A DNA stretch of 24,000 nt from Aliivibrio sp. S3MY1 (lineage in GTDB: Bacteria; Pseudomonadota; Gammaproteobacteria; Enterobacterales; Vibrionaceae): positions 130,733-154,732 of the forward strand of contig NZ_JARACO010000002.1 in the NCBI RefSeq assembly GCF_028765575.1. The letters are read 5' to 3'. The position numbers were made by a program, and so were the translations under genes. The notes under the pieces are model-generated. The model searched no databases. It saw nothing but the letters and a program-made list of their open reading frames with translations, and was not told where the DNA came from. Positions 2,851-24,000 of the stretch are shown one piece after another (the stretch's first letter is position 1; the number at the start of each line of letters is the position of its first letter).

Positions 2851-5221
2851 TTTCTTTTAATAACCTAAGAGAATTAGAGACAACAATAATAGAGCTACCA
2901 GACATTCCTACAACCGCAATATAAGGAGCAACTAAGCCCATTACTGCTAACGGTAATATAATGGCATTATAGCCTAAAGCCCATGCTAAGTTTTCACGAA
3001 TGATTTTTCGTGTTTTCATCGCAAGTTCTCGCGCTTCAATAAGTCGAGAAAGATTATCCCCCAGAAGGATCATATCTGCAGAAGCTTTTGCCACATCAGT
3101 TCCTGAGCCCATCGCTATTGATAGATGTGCGCCAGCGAGGGTCGGGGCATCATTAATGCCGTCACCAACCATTAAACTTACTTCTTGTTTTGGTAATGAT
3201 TTTAAATAATCCAATTTGCCTTGTGGCGTTGCACCTGAAATAACGTCATCGATAGCTAAAGCATTAGCCACTTTTTCTACCGATGAACTACTGTCACCAG
3301 TTAGCATAGTCACTTTAATACCTAAATGGTGCAGTGATTGAATTAAGGCTTGGCTTTCTTGGCGAATTGGATCATCCAATACAAAAGCAGCAACCGCTTG
3401 TCCATTTTTAGACAACCACACTTGGTAATCTTGATTATTTTCTAATTCACAATCTTTCGCAGCAAATGCTTTATGACCAATCTTCCATTCATCGTTACCA
3501 ATAACCCCTTGTAAGCCTGATCCAATGATATTTTCAACGCTATCAAAGTGAGTTTCAGTTGAGTCTCTATATTGTGAGAAAGCACGCGCAATAGGGTGAT
3601 TAGCAAAGGATTCCATTTCAGCCGCGATTTTTTTTGCGGTTTCCTCTGATATATCTGTAAAAGAATGGACTTGAGTTAATCGAATGTTTCCTTCGGTTAA
3701 TGTTCCTGTTTTATCAATAACTAAACGGTTAACTTTACACAGTGTTTCTAAAACATGGCCACGACGAAGCATTAAACCAAGCTGTGCTAAACGAGAAGTT
3801 GAACAGGTGATTGCTGTTGGTGTTGCTAGTGATAACGCACAAGGACAAGTCGCAACAAGAACTGAAAGCATGATCCAAAAAGCATCGTCTGGTTTTGTTT
3901 CGTGCCAGTAAAACCAAGTAAATGCAGAGATGATTAGAATACCAGCCACAAAATAACGAGCGACCAGATCTGCAATTTCTGCAACTTTAGGTTTAGACAT
4001 TTGCGCTTCATCTTGAAGTTTTACAATGTTTGATATCAAAGAATCGGCTTTGGTTTTGGTTACTTTTATGGTTAAGTTACCATCGCCATTAATGGTGCCA
4101 GCGTAAACGGGGTCGGTTTCTTTTTTTGCTACCGGCATTGATTCACCAGTAAACATAGACTCATCAATCGCACTGTACCCTGAAATAACAATACCATCCG
4201 CAGGTAAGTGCTCTCCAGGAGGAACAATTACCGTATCATCTACATCAAGTGTTCGAGCAGGGACTTTCTTTCCTGATGTTAATGTTGCCATTACTGGAAT
4301 AAGCTTTAAGAGGTTTCCTGTTATTGCAGCGGCTTTTCGACGTGCGCGCATTTCAAGGAATCGACCGAGTAATAAAAAGAAGGTAAACATGGCAACAGAT
4401 TCAAAGAAAACTTCACCAGATTCAGTAACGGTTGCTACGACACTTGCGAAATAAGCAAATAACATAGCGATAGAAACAGGGACGTCCATTCCTAATGTTC
4501 TTGCTTTTAAACTGCGCCACGCATTCATATAAAATGGCAGTGCAGAGTAGAGCATAACCGGCGTTGCAAAAACTAAGCTTACATAACGTAGGTAATTTCT
4601 AAACTCGGCATCAAGATCACCAAAGACTTCAAGATATAAAGCAACGGCAAGCATCATGACTTGCATCGTTGCTAAACCGGCAACCCCTAAACGATATAAG
4701 TATTGCTTCATTGAGCGGTGATATTCTTCTTCTTGTTTGTCTGCTTCAAATGGGGCAGCTTTGTATCCCAATTGATGAATAAGAGTAAGAAGGGTACTTA
4801 ATTTAGTTTCTTCTGGGTTCCAACTCAGCAATGCTCGATGTGTAGAGGTGTTCACTTTTATTTGATGAATACCTTGTGCATTAGTAAGTTGCTTTTCGAT
4901 TAACCAAGCACATGCAGCACAAGAAACGCCATCGAGTGACAGCGTCACTTCTTTGAAGTTGTTATTGGTACGTATGAACTCTTTTTGAATCTCATTATGA
5001 TCATAATGAGCTAGGGCTTTTAGTTGTTCTGGGACTAAATCTGCTTTATCGGCAGGGGCCGTACGATATTGATAATAAGAAGATAGGCCATTTTCAACGA
5101 TAGTTTGCGCTACTGATTCACAGCCTGGGCAACACATATCACGGGTTTCACCTAAAATATCGATTTGAAAACTAGAGCCTGAAGGTACAGGCTCACTGCA
5201 GTGATAACAATCCTTCGACAT
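2843..5221 (-). CDS. ccoI: Copper-translocating P1B-type ATPase CcoI/FixI
   Basis: 792-aa ORF with DKTGTLT, a transmembrane CPC motif, GDGINDAP and N-terminal Cys-rich metal-binding motifs. It sits between ccoH and ccoS. Confidence 0.92.
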   Translation of the reverse strand: MSKDCYHCSEPVPSGSSFQIDILGETRDMCCPGCESVAQTIVENGLSSYYQYRTAPADKADLVPEQLKALAHYDHNEIQKEFIRTNNNFKEVTLSLDGVSCAACAWLIEKQLTNAQGIHQIKVNTSTHRALLSWNPEETKLSTLLTLIHQLGYKAAPFEADKQEEEYHRSMKQYLYRLGVAGLATMQVMMLAVALYLEVFGDLDAEFRNYLRYVSLVFATPVMLYSALPFYMNAWRSLKARTLGMDVPVSIAMLFAYFASVVATVTESGEVFFESVAMFTFFLLLGRFLEMRARRKAAAITGNLLKLIPVMATLTSGKKVPARTLDVDDTVIVPPGEHLPADGIVISGYSAIDESMFTGESMPVAKKETDPVYAGTINGDGNLTIKVTKTKADSLISNIVKLQDEAQMSKPKVAEIADLVARYFVAGILIISAFTWFYWHETKPDDAFWIMLSVLVATCPCALSLATPTAITCSTSRLAQLGLMLRRGHVLETLCKVNRLVIDKTGTLTEGNIRLTQVHSFTDISEETAKKIAAEMESFANHPIARAFSQYRDSTETHFDSVENIIGSGLQGVIGNDEWKIGHKAFAAKDCELENNQDYQVWLSKNGQAVAAFVLDDPIRQESQALIQSLHHLGIKVTMLTGDSSSSVEKVANALAIDDVISGATPQGKLDYLKSLPKQEVSLMVGDGINDAPTLAGAHLSIAMGSGTDVAKASADMILLGDNLSRLIEARELAMKTRKIIRENLAWALGYNAIILPLAVMGLVAPYIAVVGMSGSSIIVVSNSLRLLKENG
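4936..4948. other. matS site (MatP-binding palindrome), exact match to the consensus
   Basis: GTGACAGCGTCAC matches GTGACRNYGTCAC at all 13 positions. It lies inside the ccoI coding sequence, 5.3 kb from dif. Confidence 0.7.
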
Positions 5222-7605: not shown

Positions 7606-9036
7606 TTATAGCACTGGCTGTGGAATTGCTTTTAGGCTGTTCTTCGGAGCAGAGATAGTCTTGTATGCGTTGTACGCAAGTAAGAACATTCCTGATAAGA
7701 AGATTAGACCGCCTAAAAAGCGAACAAAGTAGAATGGGTAAGATGCTTCTAGTGATTCCACAAAGCTGTACGTTAATGTGCCATCCGAATTTACTGCACG
7801 CCACATTAAACCCTGCATAACACCTGAAATCCACATTGCTACGATGTAAAGAACTGTTCCGATTGTCGCTAACCAGAAGTGAACATTGATTAGTGATACA
7901 GAGTACATACGCTCTTGACCAAATAGCTTAGGAATTAAGTGATATAAAGAACCAATTGAAACCATTGCAACCCAACCTAACGCACCTGAATGCACGTGAC
8001 CGATAGTCCAGTCAGTGTAGTGAGATAGGGCATTTACAGATTTAATCGCCATCATTGGACCTTCAAAGGTAGACATACCATAGAAAGACAGAGAGACAAT
8101 TAAGAATCGAAGAATAGGGTCATAACGAAGTTTATGCCAAGCACCAGACAGCGTCATTATACCATTGATCATGCCGCCCCAAGATGGTGCGAATAGAACT
8201 AATGACATCACCATACCTAGTGACTGAGTCCAGTCAGGTAACGCGGTGTAATGTAAGTGGTGAGGACCGGCCCAGATATAAAGTGAGACTAATGCCCAGA
8301 AGTGAACAATAGATAAACGGTAAGAATATACAGGACGTTCCGCTTGTTTTGGTACAAAGTAATACATCATGCCAAGGAAGCCCGCTGTCAGTAGGAAGCC
8401 TACTGCATTATGGCCGTACCACCATTGAACCATTGCATCAACAGCACCAGAATAAATCGAATACGATTTTGTCATCGATACTGGAACAGCAAGGCTATTC
8501 ACAATATGAAGAACGGCAACGGTTAGAATGAAGGCTCCAAAGAACCAGTTTGCAACGTAAATATGTGATGTCTTACGCTTAAACAAAGTTCCAAAGAAAA
8601 CAATAGCATACGCAACCCAAACTAAAGTGATTGCGATATCAATCGGCCACTCTAATTCTGCGTATTCTTTACCTGATGTCATACCTAGAGGCAACGTAAT
8701 TGCTGCTGCTAAGATAATTGCTTGCCAACCCCAGAAGGTGAACGCAACTAATGGACCACCGAACAAACGTGTTTGACAAGTGCGCTGAACAACATAATAA
8801 GATGTTGCAAACAGGGCACTTGTACCGAATGCGAAAATTACTGCATTTGTATGCAGAGGACGCAAACGGCTATACGTAAGCCACGGTGTGTCGAAATTAA
8901 GTTGCGGCCAAACTAATTGAGCGGCAATTAGTACACCCACACCCATGCCAACAATACCCCATAGTATGGTAACTAAAGAGAACTGACGAACAACGGTATA
9001 GTTGTAGTTTTGTTCATGCTGCTGTACTTGGCTCAT
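7606..9036 (-). CDS. ccoN: cbb3-type cytochrome c oxidase subunit I
   Basis: 476-aa polytopic heme-copper oxidase subunit I with conserved His-rich helices ([23 protein letters not shown]). It is the first gene of ccoNOQP. Confidence 0.95.
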
Positions 9037-9084
9037 AATTGCATGCTTCCACTTTTATTATAACTACACTTTACTTTCCATAGT

Positions 9085-9101
9085 GCGAACAAATTGTTCG
9101 C
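9085..9101. promoter_or_regulatory. Perfect 8+1+8 palindrome GCGAACAA-A-TTGTTCGC in the ccoN upstream/leader region
   Basis: Read directly from the sequence, 49 to 65 bp upstream of the ccoN ATG. I could not assign a regulator. Confidence 0.35.
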
Positions 9102-9303
9102 AATGCCACCCAAAATTCAACTTCAAATAATTGGATTTGTGACCCTTTTATTTTGAAATATTCCTTTTTAATGCAAAAATGGCATTTTCGGCATCAATGA
9201 TACTGCACTTGAAAAATGAATCATAGTTGATGCAGATGGTAATTTTACGCTTAAGCAACATTTTTCCTTTTTTTTTGAACTAGATAACACAGGTTTTTCA
9301 ACT

Positions 9304-9750
9304 ATGGCTATAGAAAAGTTAACAGGCCCTCGTTTATATCAACTTATTTTCTTATTGATCGTTCTGATCAGTGCATTTACATGGAGGACAATCACATATA
9401 TAGATCCAAATGATATTGATGAAGTTACAGAGGTTTGTGATATTACAGAACAAGCTTGTAGCTTTAATATCGATAGTAATCAGCTCATTATTGATGTAAA
9501 AGAGCGCCCAATTATGCAGAATACTGAAATAAACCTTTCAATTTCAAGTCTTGATACTGAGTGGACTTTAGAGGCTGAAGGTATCAATATGAATATGGGA
9601 AAACTGAAATTTCTGCATTTAAATGCCGATAATGCTGAAGAGAAGTACTCTGTTTTTTTACCAAAATGTAAACACAATGAGATGAAATGGATGGTCAACA
9701 TATCGAATGGAGATGAGAGAATAAATGTTAGTTTTAACTCAATAAAGTAA
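9304..9750 (+). CDS. Hypothetical membrane-anchored protein (orphan, AT-rich)
   Basis: 148-aa ORF with one N-terminal hydrophobic helix (LYQLIFLLIVLISAFTW). It has a weak Shine-Dalgarno sequence and no family I recognise. Confidence 0.5.
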   Translation: MAIEKLTGPRLYQLIFLLIVLISAFTWRTITYIDPNDIDEVTEVCDITEQACSFNIDSNQLIIDVKERPIMQNTEINLSISSLDTEWTLEAEGINMNMGKLKFLHLNADNAEEKYSVFLPKCKHNEMKWMVNISNGDERINVSFNSIK

Positions 9751-9926
9751 TTAATTTCATAGCGTTAAAAAGTAAATTATTAAAAATTAGAAACTCATGA
9801 AGAAAGGTAGTATTAGTATCTAAAAGTTAAGGTTATCTCGAGTTTTCTACACAGCAGCGTTAATCAAACTTAGTATCGTAATATTAGCGAACAGACTGCT
9901 TGATTGAAGTTTACTACGTAACAATA

Positions 9927-9980
9927 ATAAGCCAGTAATTTAATCTTAGATAAATTACTGGCTTATTATATTTTATTTTA
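9927..9980 (+). terminator. Terminator-like hairpin (possibly bidirectional) at the left edge of the dif gap
   Basis: Perfect 16-bp AT-rich stem ataagccagtaattta / taaattactggcttat (9927..9942 and 9951..9966) with an 8-nt loop, followed by tatattttatttta. Confidence 0.55.
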
Positions 9981-9983
9981 ACA

Positions 9984-9996
9984 GTTACAGTGTAAC
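9984..9996. other. matS-like palindrome (variant arms), left flank of dif
   Basis: GTTACAGTGTAAC, embedded in the perfect 15-bp palindrome AGTTACAGTGTAACT (9983..9997). It ends 193 bp before dif. Confidence 0.5.
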
Positions 9997-10036
9997 TAGT
10001 ATTATGGCAAAGCGTATTAAGAACAGAGATGTTCTA

Positions 10037-10086
10037 AGCTAATAATCATTAGATAGATACGAAGTATTATTTAATGATTATTAGCT
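10037..10086. repeat. Inverted repeat with 14-bp arms and a 22-bp spacer
   Basis: agctaataatcatt (10037..10050) is the exact reverse complement of aatgattattagct (10073..10086). Confidence 0.8.
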
Positions 10087-10189
10087 ATTTTATGGTAAAT
10101 ATGATTATGGTTAAATTACCTGTTATTGGAAGAGTTAGAGTAGTGATGGGGAAGATAAAACAGACTAATATCAAGTATAACCATATCTC

Positions 10190-10217
10190 ATTTAACATAA
10201 TATACATAATGCGCACT
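10190..10217 (-). other. dif: dif, the XerC/XerD chromosome dimer resolution site
   Basis: The minus strand reads AGTGCGCATTA-TGTATA-TTATGTTAAAT. It matches 26 of 28 positions of E. coli dif (GGTGCGCATAATGTATATTATGTTAAAT) and 27 of 28 of V. cholerae dif1 as I recall it. Confidence 0.9.
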
Positions 10218-10345
10218 GTGATATACAGTAATAATAGATGATAATTTACTGATAACCATGAGTTTTAGTCAATTATCTGTTATTTATGTCTTTTGAATTT
10301 GTATCTTATTATCTTAGTCAGTTACACTAACTTAATTATATGATT

Positions 10346-10358
10346 GTTACCTTGTCAC
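10346..10358. other. matS-like palindrome (one variant arm), right flank of dif
   Basis: GTTACCTTGTCAC, starting 128 bp after dif and lying 50 bp upstream of the lipoprotein gene. Confidence 0.45.
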
Positions 10359-10408
10359 AATTAGCTTCAACGTTGTTTTGTGTTCAAGTATTTACCTAAG
10401 GTTTTTAA

Positions 10409-10966
10409 ATGAAAAATAATAAACTGACTCTCCTTGCATTGCTTTCCAGTTTACTGCTTTCTGGCTGCGCTAGTTATTCTATTACAGAAAAAGAAATGAC
10501 TGACTATCTGTCCGATGAAATTCATGTGGAAAAGTCTGTTGGGATCCCCGGCTTACTCTACGCTCAGGTTAATGTTGAAAATGTTAATGTTCAAATCGGA
10601 CGTATTGATGCTGATAGGATCAGTGTTTTCGCAAACACGACAGCTGATATTCAAATGATGGATAAATTAGAACAAACCCTATCACTTACTTTAGAATTTA
10701 GTGCTATTCCTAAATACGATAAAGAAACTGGCGAGATTTATTTGAAGTCTCTTCGCTTAGAGAAATTTGAGGATAAAAATAAACAATTATCACCAGAACT
10801 GACGTCATTATTAAAACCAGCCGTTTCTATCATCGGTTATGCGTTATCTAATGAACCGGCTTATAAGTTAAATTCAGAGAAACTAAAGGAATCTCTAATA
10901 AAGTCAGCTGAACCTAATTTGGCTATTAAGAACAATAAGCTTGTGATTGATTTGTTTGGTAAGTAA
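10409..10966 (+). CDS. Lipoprotein, DUF1439 (YceB-like) family
   Basis: 185-aa ORF with a signal peptide and lipobox LLLSGC. Its size and sequence character resemble YceB-type lipoproteins. Confidence 0.7.
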   Translation: MKNNKLTLLALLSSLLLSGCASYSITEKEMTDYLSDEIHVEKSVGIPGLLYAQVNVENVNVQIGRIDADRISVFANTTADIQMMDKLEQTLSLTLEFSAIPKYDKETGEIYLKSLRLEKFEDKNKQLSPELTSLLKPAVSIIGYALSNEPAYKLNSEKLKESLIKSAEPNLAIKNNKLVIDLFGK

Positions 10967-11010
10967 TAAATCAATTAGTTATAGTGCACTAGGCTACGTT
11001 TGATTAATAA

Positions 11011-11043
11011 CTACATGAGCTGTTACTTTAATAGCTCATGTAG
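11011..11043. terminator. Hairpin between the convergent lipoprotein and matP genes (overlaps the matP stop)
   Basis: Perfect 11-bp stem ctacatgagct / agctcatgtag with an 11-nt loop. The flanking T-tracts are weak. Confidence 0.45.
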
Positions 11044-11469
11044 ATCTGCTTTAAGTGATGACACTGTTTGACTCGCCTTTTCTGTTCTCGAGGCCTCACT
11101 TAATAAATACTCAATCGTATCTGATAGTGTTGAGTCTAAATCCTGTGCTCTAAGAGAAAGCTTTTCCCACACACGATAATCTAAGTCGATTGATTTCTTA
11201 CGCGTATGTTCTTGTTCTGCATTAAAGTGACGCTTTCTTTTCGCTCGAATTGCTTGCTTTAGCTTATTCTCTAAATCAGGATTCATATGTTTTTGGATCC
11301 ATTCGAGTGATTTTACCGGCTCATGCTCTAGTTTTAAGAACTCATTAACCTGTTGTTGTTGTTCACTAGAATCGATATAACACGTAATTGATCCCCCCAT
11401 ACGATGCTTATTAAATAAATACATCCATTTCCAACCGGCTTCTAGATTTTCAAGTTGTTGGTATTTCAT
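11023..11469 (-). CDS. matP: Macrodomain Ter organiser protein MatP
   Basis: MKYQQLENLEAGWKW..., RAKRKRHFNAEQEHTRKKSIDL... is colinear with E. coli MatP. The track ORF starts 3 codons earlier at a GTG; I prefer the ATG at 11469. Confidence 0.93.
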   Translation of the reverse strand: MKYQQLENLEAGWKWMYLFNKHRMGGSITCYIDSSEQQQQVNEFLKLEHEPVKSLEWIQKHMNPDLENKLKQAIRAKRKRHFNAEQEHTRKKSIDLDYRVWEKLSLRAQDLDSTLSDTIEYLLSEASRTEKASQTVSSLKADLHELLK

Positions 11470-11502
11470 ATAACGCACTCATATTAAAGAGAATAAATTT
11501 GA

Positions 11503-11515
11503 GTGACAGTGTAAC
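11503..11515. other. matS-like palindrome in the matP promoter region
   Basis: GTGACAGTGTAAC, 34 bp upstream of the matP ATG. Its 15-mer AGTGACAGTGTAACT differs by one base from the site at 9983..9997. Confidence 0.55.
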
Positions 11516-11536
11516 TCTAGTTTGCATTATCATCAA
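11508..11536 (-). promoter_or_regulatory. Candidate sigma70 promoter of matP
   Basis: The minus strand reads TTGATG, 17 nt, TACACT. The -10 hexamer lies inside the matS-like site. Confidence 0.35.
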
Positions 11537-11649
11537 CATTCTTCGTGGATAATGAGATTAAGATCTAATTGGTAATGTAACTACTGAAAAATCAGACGTG
11601 TGTAGTTATGTCATGTATAATCAGTTTTATTTTTTATCAATAAGTAAGC

Positions 11650-13317
11650 ATGCAGTTAGACACGCCATTTCTAATCGAACCTCAGTACGATCATATTCAA
11701 GATGCCTTGGATCAATCTCACTCAATCGACGCACAATCCCCCTATTCTCTGCAGCCAAAATTGACTCAAGCTTTAGAGGTTTTCTCTCATATAAATGGCA
11801 TTAATATACTGCAAATCAATGCGCTAGATAATCACGTTTATCGTGAATATATCGCAAACTGGTTATGCTTAAACACATCAAATCGCTTAGCTAATGACGA
11901 AATGGTCCCTGTTGTGGTTATTGAAAGTGCCTCTGAAGCAGAGCTTTTCGGTGTTTATCATAATAAAAGTGATATTCTTGAACATGGCTTATTACAAAAA
12001 GCCAATGGTGGTTTTCTAATTATTTCACCAAGTCTCCTACTGGCAAATCCACACTTTTGGCCAAGACTTAAAAGTTTATTACAAGGTCACCCGATAACAA
12101 TTTCAGCAAGTGATTCAAAGTCACCAATGCCGCATACGCACCGTTTAATGGTTGATGTTAAATTAGTTATCGTTAGTGATCGTGCTTTACTTGGGGAAAT
12201 CGAACAATTAGAGCCCGACTTGCTCGCTGGCATGTCAATGTTTGCAGAATATGAGTTTGATACCACATTAGAAAGTGACACGGTAACTGACTACATAAAA
12301 CTGATTAACTCACTATCTATTAAGAATAAACACTTACCGCTACAAAATGGTTCTGCTTTATTACCGTTACTCAAAGCAGGCGCAAGAGAATGTGAAGATC
12401 AAACTCGACTTAACTTGTGTTTATTATGGTTAAACTCTATTTTAGCTCATGCTTCTTTGGCTTCACTGTCAAAAGAATATATTACTGCTGATGATTTTAA
12501 CCAATCATTTAAAACCAAGTATCATATTGAATCCTATTTACCATCGAGAGCCCTAGATGATATTTTAGAGCAAAATATATTCATTGAAACTCAAGGTGAA
12601 CAAATTGGTCAAATCAATGGGTTAACTGTTGTCTCTGTACCCGGACACCCTATTTCTTACGGTGAACCTTCTCGAATTACCTGTGTCGTACATGCGGGTG
12701 ATGGTGAATTATCAGATGTAGAACGCAAAGTAGAATTAGGTGGCGATCTTCATGCTAAAGGCATGTTGATAATGCAAGCTTATATACTTAGCCAGTTAAA
12801 AACTCATGAACCACTTCCTTTTACGGCCTCGATGGTATTTGAACAATCTTACTGTGAAGTTGATGGTGACAGTGCAAGTTTAGCTGAGCTGTGTGCATTT
12901 TTAAGTGCCCTTGCGATAAAACCAATTAATCAAAGTTTGGCAATTACTGGTTCTGTCGATCAGTTCGGTATGATTCAACCAATTGGCGGCGTAAACGAAA
13001 AAATTGAAGCCTTCTTCCAGCTGTGTGAAAAACGCGGGTTAACTGGTGAGCAAGGTGTTATTATCCCAAAAACAAACGGAATTAATCTTGTACTTTCCGA
13101 TGAGGTAATTCAAGCAGTTAATGAAAAACAGTTTACTATTCATCTTGTTAGTCATGTTGAAGAAGCTGTAGAATTATTAACAGGATTACCATTGCAATCT
13201 GAAGAGCACGAATCGATTTTCTCTTTAATTGCTCAACATATAGAAGATGTTGAACATAATCCGAACCAGTGTTCCGCTTTATTCTGTCGTATTAAGAACT
13301 GGTTTAACCAGCGCTGA
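11650..13317 (+). CDS. ycbZ: Lon-like protease homolog (YcbZ/LonH type; C-terminal Lon S16 protease domain)
   Basis: 555-aa ORF whose C-terminal half is colinear with E. coli YcbZ (GEPSRITCVVH, ERKVELGG..HAKG, FEQSY.EVDGDSAS.AELCA, ITGSVDQFG..QPIGGVNEKIE). It lies between matP and fabA as in E. coli. Confidence 0.85.
   Translation: MQLDTPFLIEPQYDHIQDALDQSHSIDAQSPYSLQPKLTQALEVFSHINGINILQINALDNHVYREYIANWLCLNTSNRLANDEMVPVVVIESASEAELFGVYHNKSDILEHGLLQKANGGFLIISPSLLLANPHFWPRLKSLLQGHPITISASDSKSPMPHTHRLMVDVKLVIVSDRALLGEIEQLEPDLLAGMSMFAEYEFDTTLESDTVTDYIKLINSLSIKNKHLPLQNGSALLPLLKAGARECEDQTRLNLCLLWLNSILAHASLASLSKEYITADDFNQSFKTKYHIESYLPSRALDDILEQNIFIETQGEQIGQINGLTVVSVPGHPISYGEPSRITCVVHAGDGELSDVERKVELGGDLHAKGMLIMQAYILSQLKTHEPLPFTASMVFEQSYCEVDGDSASLAELCAFLSALAIKPINQSLAITGSVDQFGMIQPIGGVNEKIEAFFQLCEKRGLTGEQGVIIPKTNGINLVLSDEVIQAVNEKQFTIHLVSHVEEAVELLTGLPLQSEEHESIFSLIAQHIEDVEHNPNQCSALFCRIKNWFNQR
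12275..12287. other. matS-like palindrome (one variant arm, non-RNY centre)
   Basis: GTGACACGGTAAC, inside the ycbZ-like coding sequence. Confidence 0.4.
13297..13313. promoter_or_regulatory. FadR-box-like palindrome upstream of the fabA promoter
   Basis: AACTGGTTTAACCAGCG contains the perfect CTGGTT-T-AACCAG palindrome; compare the FadR operator core CTGGT-N3-ACCAG. It overlaps the last codons of the ycbZ-like gene. Confidence 0.45.
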
Positions 13318-18083: not shown

Positions 18084-18306
18084 TGTCTTCTAACCAATTC
18101 TTTAATTGCGATATATTGAATGGCCAATTGAGCTCAGATAAGCCATTGGCCACCACAGGTATTGTGACACCGTAACGAGAGAAAAGCTCATCGTTGAACG
18201 CTATGTCTACCGTGTCTACTTTTTCGATATCTACACCCACCTCCACAAGCAAGTCAAACGCTTGCTCGCAAAGATGGCAGCCTTCCGTGCTATAGAGAGT
18301 AATCAT
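18064..18306 (-). CDS. Glutaredoxin-like small thioredoxin-fold protein (DUF836 type)
   Basis: 80-aa ORF with a CxxC motif (EGCHLCE) near the N-terminus. Its 3' end overlaps the uup start by 20 nt. Confidence 0.7.
   Translation of the reverse strand: MITLYSTEGCHLCEQAFDLLVEVGVDIEKVDTVDIAFNDELFSRYGVTIPVVANGLSELNWPFNISQLKNWLEDNGITYN
18164..18176. other. matS-like palindrome (one variant arm)
   Basis: GTGACACCGTAAC, inside the glutaredoxin-like coding sequence. Confidence 0.5.
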
Positions 18307-22967: not shown

Positions 22968-24000
22968 CTATTGTTTTGACGTACAGCTTAAGTTTAGTAA
23001 CGTAAGTTCTCTTAATGCTACCGAGAATTTAGCAAACTCATGGACTGAACCTACCTTAAATTCATTCAAGATATTATCCCAACGTCCTACTGATGTAGCA
23101 TTCTTTTCACACCACTCTTCAATGGCCTTTTCTACTGACTCGGTATCTTTGTACTCAGCAAGCACTAATTGAGTCAGTTGACGTTGCTGCCAATCTAAGT
23201 CTTCACGAAAAGAAGCACGAGCAAGCGCTTGCCAATGGTTATCAACACCTTGGTTATTAATCTGTTTTAAGAACCAATGCAGAGATAACTTATCACCCAG
23301 AACATAGTATAAACGCGCCGTCGTTGAAACCGGTTGCTTCATATCTACCGCAACAGCTGAAATGTCCATTGCAGAGTACAAGCTACTTAGCCGAGCAAGA
23401 ACATTACCTAGCTCACAAGGTACACCCATTTCTAGATAGTGATTAGCTTGTTCAATATGCTCAACTACTTCATCGTTAACTAAGTAACTATCAAGGTTAT
23501 CTTTAATCTCATAAACTGCAGGCTTATATTTTTCAATAAGCTCCTGAATTGACATATTTTGTGAGCCATTACGTAATAACCAACGAGTCACTCGACGAAT
23601 GGTTCTACGCATTGCAAATAATGCTTCATACTGAGCCTCTGTCGTTGAGATATTATCGAGATTACGGATCTGTTTAAATAAGTCACCAAAATCAAAAATA
23701 GCTCGAGTCGCTGAATACGCATTGGCTATATCAGTGACGGTGTAACCTGTTTCTTCTTGCAAACGAGTGATGAAGTTACAACCCATCTCATTAACCATCT
23801 GATTTGCTAAACAAGTCGCGATGATTTCTGAGCGTAGAGGATGATTATCCATTTCTGCTTTATAGTTACGTTGTAACTCTGTTGGGAAGTAAGTCGTCAG
23901 TAAATCAGCATGGTATGGATTATGTGCAATCTCATCACAGGCTAACTCATCCTTTAGAACCATTTTTCCATAAGCCACAAGAACTGAAAGCTCTGGACGA
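22968..24000 (-). CDS. NAD-specific glutamate dehydrogenase (large Bac_GDH type), C-terminal part; continues beyond the window
   Basis: The frame stays open past the track's GTG start to the window edge (...RPELSVLVAYGKMVLKDEL...). The C-terminal region resembles the ~1600-aa NAD-GDH family. Confidence 0.8.
   Translation of the reverse strand, partial: RPELSVLVAYGKMVLKDELACDEIAHNPYHADLLTTYFPTELQRNYKAEMDNHPLRSEIIATCLANQMVNEMGCNFITRLQEETGYTVTDIANAYSATRAIFDFGDLFKQIRNLDNISTTEAQYEALFAMRRTIRRVTRWLLRNGSQNMSIQELIEKYKPAVYEIKDNLDSYLVNDEVVEHIEQANHYLEMGVPCELGNVLARLSSLYSAMDISAVAVDMKQPVSTTARLYYVLGDKLSLHWFLKQINNQGVDNHWQALARASFREDLDWQQRQLTQLVLAEYKDTESVEKAIEEWCEKNATSVGRWDNILNEFKVGSVHEFAKFSVALRELTLLNLSCTSKQ
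23734..23746. other. matS-like palindrome (one variant arm)
   Basis: GTGACGGTGTAAC, inside the NAD-GDH coding sequence. Confidence 0.5.
23865..23877. other. matS-like palindrome (both arms variant)
   Basis: GTTACGTTGTAAC, inside the NAD-GDH coding sequence, 119 bp from the previous site. Confidence 0.4.

Follow-up and report, generated by a model that had tools for sequence, protein, structure and literature searches.

Two matS-type sites close to dif at an Aliivibrio chromosome 1 terminus, a probable by-product of dense MatP-site clustering rather than a conserved positioning device

The window (the whole stretch of DNA analyzed, 24 kb in length) carries, in this order, the genes ccoP, ccoO, and ccoN (reverse strand, up to position 9036), a conserved gene for a 148-aa protein, the dif region, a DUF1439 gene, matP, a lon-like gene, and fabA. 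The dif site lies within the 659-bp intergenic region between the 148-aa gene and the DUF1439 gene, and the features in this part of the window are as follows:

9304–9750, forward strand: conserved 148-aa gene, divergent from ccoN and beside the dif module in this lineage
9924–9969, forward strand: terminator hairpin of the 148-aa gene with 19-bp perfect arms, followed by ATTTTATTTT
9983–9997, no strand: left palindrome AGTTACAGTGTAACT, 7-bp arms around a central G, by direct sequence reading
9984–9996, no strand: 13-bp core of the left palindrome (GTTAC-AGT-GTAAC), matS-type, both half-sites GTTAC-type
10190–10217, reverse strand: dif (ATTTAACATAATATACATAATGCGCACT), XerC arm AGTGCGCATTA, centre TGTATA, XerD arm TTATGTTAAAT (read on the reverse strand)
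10346–10358, no strand: right matS-type site GTTACCTTGTCAC (GTTAC-CTT-GTCAC), half-sites GTTAC and GTGAC, centre CTT/AAG
10409–10966, forward strand: DUF1439 (YceB-like) lipoprotein gene, by family search
11023–11478, reverse strand: matP, complete, with N-terminal domain and ribbon-helix-helix domain
11503–11515, no strand: matS-type site GTGACAGTGTAAC, 25 bp upstream of the matP ORF, candidate autoregulatory operator

Direct reading of the sequence confirmed the two palindromes around dif as they had been placed in the preliminary description, with gaps to dif of exactly 192 bp on the left and 128 bp on the right; the right palindrome is imperfect (arms GTTAC vs. GTGAC), and the start codon of the DUF1439 lipoprotein gene follows 50 bp after it. 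The 148-aa protein, a predicted membrane protein, had no match in Pfam or NCBIfam, and its homologues adjoin ccoN across Vibrionaceae (tblastn). The dif site is identical to the site in chromosome I of A. fischeri ES114 and in many Vibrio species. It is single-copy in the window even when 3 mismatches are allowed in a search with the 28-bp site, and as no second dif-like site was found in the 24 kb at this threshold (≤ 3 mismatches), nothing points to a mobile element integrated at dif. A clean GC-skew switch was not seen in the 24 kb, and the KOPS motif GGGNAGGG does not occur in the window, which is too short and AT-rich to decide on the switch or to call a polarity. The window stems from an Aliivibrio and contains the replication terminus of its chromosome 1.

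In E. coli, 23 matS sites (GTGACRNYGTCAC) are found in the Ter macrodomain of approximately 800 kb. Compared with this consensus (GTGAC-RNY-GTCAC), the left and right sites have 2 mismatches each, and the window contains 9 sites with ≤ 2 mismatches to the E. coli matS vs. 1.5 expected, a number reached in none of 100 shuffles. The motif accepted in Vibrionaceae was examined in 80 loci obtained by a MatP protein scan with one genome per species. Motifs were counted in unique sequence contexts over 1.48 Mb (the 80 Vibrionaceae matP–dif loci plus the window, i.e., terminus loci only), and the same half-site pairs at spacers other than 3 served as internal control. GTGAC-N3-GTCAC was present 107 times at spacer 3 (mean 1.5 at other spacers), GTGAC-N3-GTAAC, with one GTTAC half-site, 166 times (mean 0.9 elsewhere), and GTTAC-N3-GTAAC, with two GTTAC half-sites, 24 times (0–3 elsewhere, mean about 0.5), a spacing-controlled enrichment of 50- to 190-fold for these classes. 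The remaining 14 single-base half-site variants were not clearly enriched in the 1.48 Mb under the same control, ATGAC (9 sites vs. ~1) being the sole variant slightly over background. The spacer-3 enrichment of the three half-site pairs points to a family matS that would read GTKAC-N3-GTMAC or, in its fuller form, GTKAC-VNB-GTMAC, a motif that both palindromes match. A or G occupies position 6 in 91% of the sites, C in 9%, and T in none, so that the central triplet of the right site (AAG/CTT, C at position 6) is of the minority type.

The GTTAC half-site is as common as GTGAC in Vibrionaceae, unlike in the E. coli consensus, where it counts as a mismatch. In ten loci, a double-GTTAC site stands in place of a single-GTTAC site at the orthologous position upstream of matP, which argues that the two classes may be functionally interchangeable. 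As judged from sequence, T at position 3 and A at position 11 would be tolerated as freely as the canonical bases, in which case scans based on the E. coli motif undercount the Vibrionaceae sites. The reading of both palindromes as probable MatP sites is well supported by sequence statistics, and their earlier description as matS-like stands: they belong to a class enriched at the exact 3-bp spacing, and a complete matP lies 0.8 kb away.

The window holds 8 sites of the Vibrionaceae motif. In addition to the sites listed above, these are:

4936–4948, no strand: perfect matS GTGACAGCGTCAC, intragenic
12275–12287, no strand: matS-type site within the lon-like gene, with orthologous sites in several relatives
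18164–18176, no strand: matS-type site GTGACACCGTAAC, intergenic
23734–23746 and 23865–23877, no strand: two matS-type sites, by motif scan

The dif-bearing loci of the relatives carry ~1 matS-type site per 4 kb. At the position orthologous to 18164–18176, GTTACGGTGTCAC occurs in all Aliivibrio loci that reach there as well as in the V. cholerae-like locus L037. Matches at orthologous positions from Aliivibrio to L037, some of them intragenic, were observed for 12275–12287 and 18164–18176 (~3300–3440 and ~9180 in the loci), and this conservation indicates that individual matS-type sites may be maintained over the long term across this range. Half of the window sites (4/8) fall in the ~3.7 kb of intergenic DNA. 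Given this intergenic share, ~0.7 sites are expected in the 659-bp region around dif, where every possible site necessarily lies at most about 440 bp from dif; two sites so near dif are therefore only mildly unusual if the intergenic bias is accepted. Under random placement at the window-wide density, the probability of a site within ~200 bp on each side is ~0.004, and chance is therefore an incomplete explanation of the bracket unless this bias is accepted.

For the comparison within the genus, ten dif regions were aligned; the nearest relative of the window is Aliivibrio sp. EL58 (L001; 99% in the MatP scan). The right site has an identical sequence in 8 non-fischeri Aliivibrio species, where it lies 128–131 bp from dif, and it is 1 of only 3 13-column windows at 100% identity, the intergenic mean being 37%. 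The A. fischeri counterpart (GTGACAATGTAAC) lies 280 bp from dif and ~33 bp (an estimate) before the lipoprotein gene start. With the distance to the gene similar and the distance to dif ~150 bp greater, the position of the right site appears to follow the start of this gene and not dif.

The left site is present in the window and L001 and absent from all other Aliivibrio. L001 keeps the 13-bp core, and the 15-bp palindrome is broken there (AGTTAC...GTAACC). The other Aliivibrio carry a perfect matS 885–977 bp beyond dif, within a stretch missing from the window and L001. This stretch falls between dif and the 148-aa gene in L002–L011 (e.g., 11450–12990 in L009), where the gene lies 1.5–3.4 kb further from dif, and has no counterpart in L001 or in the window (9750–10036); read by eye from the alignment, it is a putative convergent response-regulator/kinase-like gene. 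Since the stretch is kept in L002, whose MatP is 99% identical to that of the window, and in all other Aliivibrio, it was most likely lost in the lineage of the window and L001. The conservation envisaged in the preliminary description for both palindromes and their spacing holds within the genus for the right one and fails for the left one, whose apparent lineage restriction is drawn from two closely related genomes only.

Sites at ≤ 200 bp on both sides of dif were found only in the window and L001 among the 44 dif-bearing sequences (the window and 43 loci), a count that speaks against the tight two-sided bracket as a conserved arrangement. No such bracket was present in other genera (32 non-Aliivibrio dif-bearing loci), and sites within 1 kb on both sides were found in 13/44 sequences, 11 of them from Aliivibrio. 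In a strain of A. finisterrensis (L005, 10450–14598), an insertion of ~3.3 kb separates dif from the right matS-type site, on the XerC-arm side, and is possibly an element integrated at dif.

We consider it probable that both palindromes are ordinary matS sites and that the 375-bp bracket is a by-product and not a conserved positioning device. The palindromes would be part of a MatP-site cluster that is very dense and centred on dif, and the local enrichment of MatP may prolong the cohesion of sister dif sites until FtsK arrives, as inferred from the V. cholerae literature. The right site, upstream of the lipoprotein gene, would be old and kept by selection. The left one would be young: the window and L001 are without the far-side gene that bears the intragenic perfect matS, its absence would have put the conserved 148-aa gene beside dif, and a new matS-type site may then have arisen in the short spacer. 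High site density, intergenic preference, and lineage-specific gene content would together produce the bracket.

The closest studied relative is V. cholerae, where ChIP-seq located 43 and 35 matS sites on the two chromosomes, with matS density and MatP signal peaking at dif1 and dif2, and where a satellite prophage brings matS beside dif1 (PMC11564523). The matS/MatP system of V. cholerae (PMC11564523; PMC4177673) resembles that of the window in having a MatP of the same protein family and dif1-centred sites in genes as well as in intergenic DNA, and matS sites immediately beside dif1 also exist there and have been manipulated experimentally (PMC11564523). V. cholerae is of another genus, however; in the V. 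cholerae-like L037, the nearest sites lie 1.6 kb and 5.0 kb from dif, so the 128 and 192 bp of the window are tighter. As 66 good-scoring motifs are unbound in vivo in V. cholerae (PMC11564523), either palindrome could be unoccupied by MatP. Moreover, the positioning of dif1 by MatP in V. cholerae requires neither ZapB nor FtsZ-dependent divisome assembly nor tetramerisation (PMC11564523), which contradicts, in this relative, the tethering to the divisome through ZapB that had been proposed for the palindromes. The view that such an arrangement is undescribed is weakened as well, given that matS clustering at dif and its effect on sister-dif cohesion have already been published for V. cholerae (PMC11564523).

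The palindromic 5-3-5 architecture of matS is shared between E. coli and Vibrionaceae, as is a homologous MatP (59% identity between the E. coli protein and that of the window). Unlike in the window, the nearest canonical matS of E. coli K-12 lies 9.7 kb from dif on one side, with none within 24.7 kb on the other.

Among the alternatives to the by-product reading, the one that survives best concerns the left palindrome, which could be fortuitous, or could act as a small RNA hairpin within an untranslated 3′ spacer, without serving in DNA binding. It is known from two near-identical genomes only, sits between two terminator hairpins, and lies in an AT-rich region that favours GTTAC/GTAAC words. 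These points are set against the ~50-fold enrichment of GTTAC-N3-GTAAC at exactly this spacing in Vibrionaceae and against the retention of the 13-bp core in L001 while the 15-bp palindrome is broken, and we regard this explanation as rather unlikely. Two specific versions were discarded: as an RNA hairpin, the palindrome folds no better than shuffled sequences (z −0.93), and as a promoter, its best overlapping promoter-like match is apparently not conserved in L001 (by eye).

A functional clamp, with a MatP dimer selected on each flank of dif so that the sisters are held or shielded until FtsK strips the last MatP and then activates XerD, appears distinctly improbable. In this scenario, the left site would have arisen as compensation for the missing far-side intragenic matS. 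Selection for local matS density at dif has indeed been argued (PMC11564523), a matS-type site lies ≤ 1 kb from dif on each side in the window and in all 11 Aliivibrio loci but L005, and the sole lineage that is missing both the far-side gene and the matS inside it shows a new one even nearer to dif. Outside Aliivibrio, however, a site ≤ 1 kb away on each side is found in only 2/32 dif loci, and in many of them the far side is empty of sites for several kb, the supposed compensation is one evolutionary event with a chance probability of roughly 0.05–0.2, and the position of the right site in A. fischeri appears to follow the gene start. FtsK readily displaces MatP, and a role of MatP as a roadblock is therefore unlikely.

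Similarly doubtful is the proposal that the right site serves as an operator of the DUF1439 gene, and the site upstream of matP as an operator of matP, with MatP or a similar dimeric regulator acting as repressor and the proximity to dif being incidental. The right site might primarily be a transcriptional operator, as it lies 30–50 bp before the gene start in both the window (50 bp) and A. fischeri (~33 bp, estimated), even though it is 150 bp further from dif in the latter; in addition, it is perfectly conserved between diverged flanks, and a comparable site just before matP is found from Vibrionaceae to E. coli. Against this, no conserved −35/−10 pair could be placed relative to the right site, and many equally conserved matS-type sites are intragenic, so that promoter proximity is not needed to account for conservation. 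A promoter over the right site was also considered and rejected, as no arrangement was conserved across species.

A conserved and functionally special dif clamp is thus not supported, the general phenomenon is already known, and the finding of the palindromes as stated adds little, given that MatP-site crowding and its role in cohesion are published and the tight bracket is unconserved. More interesting leads than the clamp are the terminator/XerD-like block adjacent to dif and the candidate operator of matP. The features of the block are:

10037–10094, forward strand: conserved hairpin (arms 10037–10055 and 10068–10086) followed by TATTTTAT, most likely an intrinsic terminator
10090–10100, forward strand: XerD-arm-like repeat 1, TTATGGTAAAT, one mismatch to the XerD arm of dif
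10105–10116, forward strand: XerD-arm-like repeat 2, TTATGGTTAAAT, a direct repeat of the first

The block (10037–10116) is the most conserved non-dif feature inside the bracket and is nearly invariant in all Aliivibrio. It is present once, and always on the XerD-arm side, in 42/42 loci that extend far enough past a dif, where it lies 72–145 bp beyond the XerD arm (e.g., 11706–11790 in L037), and beyond Aliivibrio the loci that bear it come from Vibrio, Salinivibrio, Grimontia, and Enterovibrio; it is absent beside E. coli dif. A scan of positions 9000–11700 against Rfam gave no family for the block, only two hairpin matches, spurious and well under the gathering scores, and nothing relevant to a small RNA at dif1 turned up in a literature search. 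Small ORFs over dif (10074–10241, forward strand, and 10085–10216, reverse strand) were dismissed, as they have no coding-type conservation pattern.

The hairpin has a free energy of −23.2 kcal/mol on the forward strand (z −6.0), with compensatory changes in 5/7 consensus pairs of its AT-rich stem. It is more stable on the strand directed toward dif in 40/44 distinct versions (mean difference −3.7 kcal/mol; G.U strand bias), and directly 3′ of it, on the same strand, stands the U tract UAUUUUAU. Both the greater stability and the U tract on this strand argue for an intrinsic terminator that most likely stops transcription approaching from the XerD-arm side and keeps it out of dif. The opposite reading, a sigma-70 promoter that fires away from dif with a 5′ hairpin, was ruled out by the same two observations.

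Both repeats run in the opposite orientation to the XerD arm of dif, lie 73 bp from dif in the window, and overlap the terminator tail. Repeat 1 is identical in 44/45 copies (the exception, L073, has TTATGGCAAAT), while repeat 2, which takes the forms TTATGTTNAAT or TTATGGTTAAAT, shows 1 mismatch in 16 sequences, the remaining ones having 2 mismatches or a 1-nt insertion. Apart from the repeats and dif, only about 44 XerD-arm-like matches (≤ 1 mismatch) occur in the 1.48 Mb. The spacing between repeats and dif ranges from 49 to 129 bp, with 71/75 values within 57–87 bp and modes near 64, 72, and 83 bp; helical phasing relative to dif was rejected, since these spacings follow no clean 10.5-bp period. 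In 34 provirus contigs, the same block stands beside hybrid dif-like sites whose central regions vary, an arrangement that insertion of Xer-dependent elements on the XerC side would produce.

Known accessory sequences of Xer sites include those of the plasmid sites cer and psi, which are on the XerC side and bind ArgR/ArcA and PepA, and B. subtilis has XerD-only binding sites that are dispersed and act on SMC. Like the repeats in Vibrionaceae, these are cis elements beside or resembling an Xer core, a likeness offered only as a lead; unlike the sequences of cer and psi, the repeats lie on the XerD side, 49–129 bp from dif, and overlap a terminator tail. It is conceivable, though on balance unlikely, that dif1 of Vibrionaceae is the centre of a multi-part module, with the terminator and two inverted XerD-arm-like half-sites kept on its XerD-arm side in at least five genera and with MatP sites retained along the flanks. 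If this were true, with XerD binding the half-sites and selection acting on the flanking MatP sites, dimer resolution here would involve cis accessory elements of a kind undescribed for a chromosomal dif, and the terminator with its XerD-arm-like repeats provides a testable lead on such elements.

The second lead concerns matP itself, which was identified with 232.9 bits to NCBIfam NF003471 (cutoff 165) and by Pfam matches to MatP and MatP_C. A dif1-type site, identical or near-identical, lies 0.4–10 kb downstream of matP in 43/80 Vibrionaceae loci, and the linkage between matP and dif is therefore a trait of the family, unlike in E. coli, where matP is not near dif. The site upstream of matP is present in all Aliivibrio and in many other genera as GTTAC-N3-GTCAC or GTTAC-N3-GTAAC. 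In E. coli K-12 (L082, ~3461–3473), GTTACACGGTAAC ends 12 bp before the ATG of matP; three mismatches separate it from the E. coli matS consensus, which may be the reason why it is not counted among the canonical matS sites. The site upstream of matP suggests that MatP may regulate its own expression, a subject for which a literature search found nothing relevant, and a matP beside dif with a conserved matS-type candidate operator is a testable lead on how MatP levels are set. The gene order fabA, lon-like gene, matP is conserved in Vibrionaceae loci, and in E. coli the corresponding trio fabA-ycbZ-matP is located far from dif.
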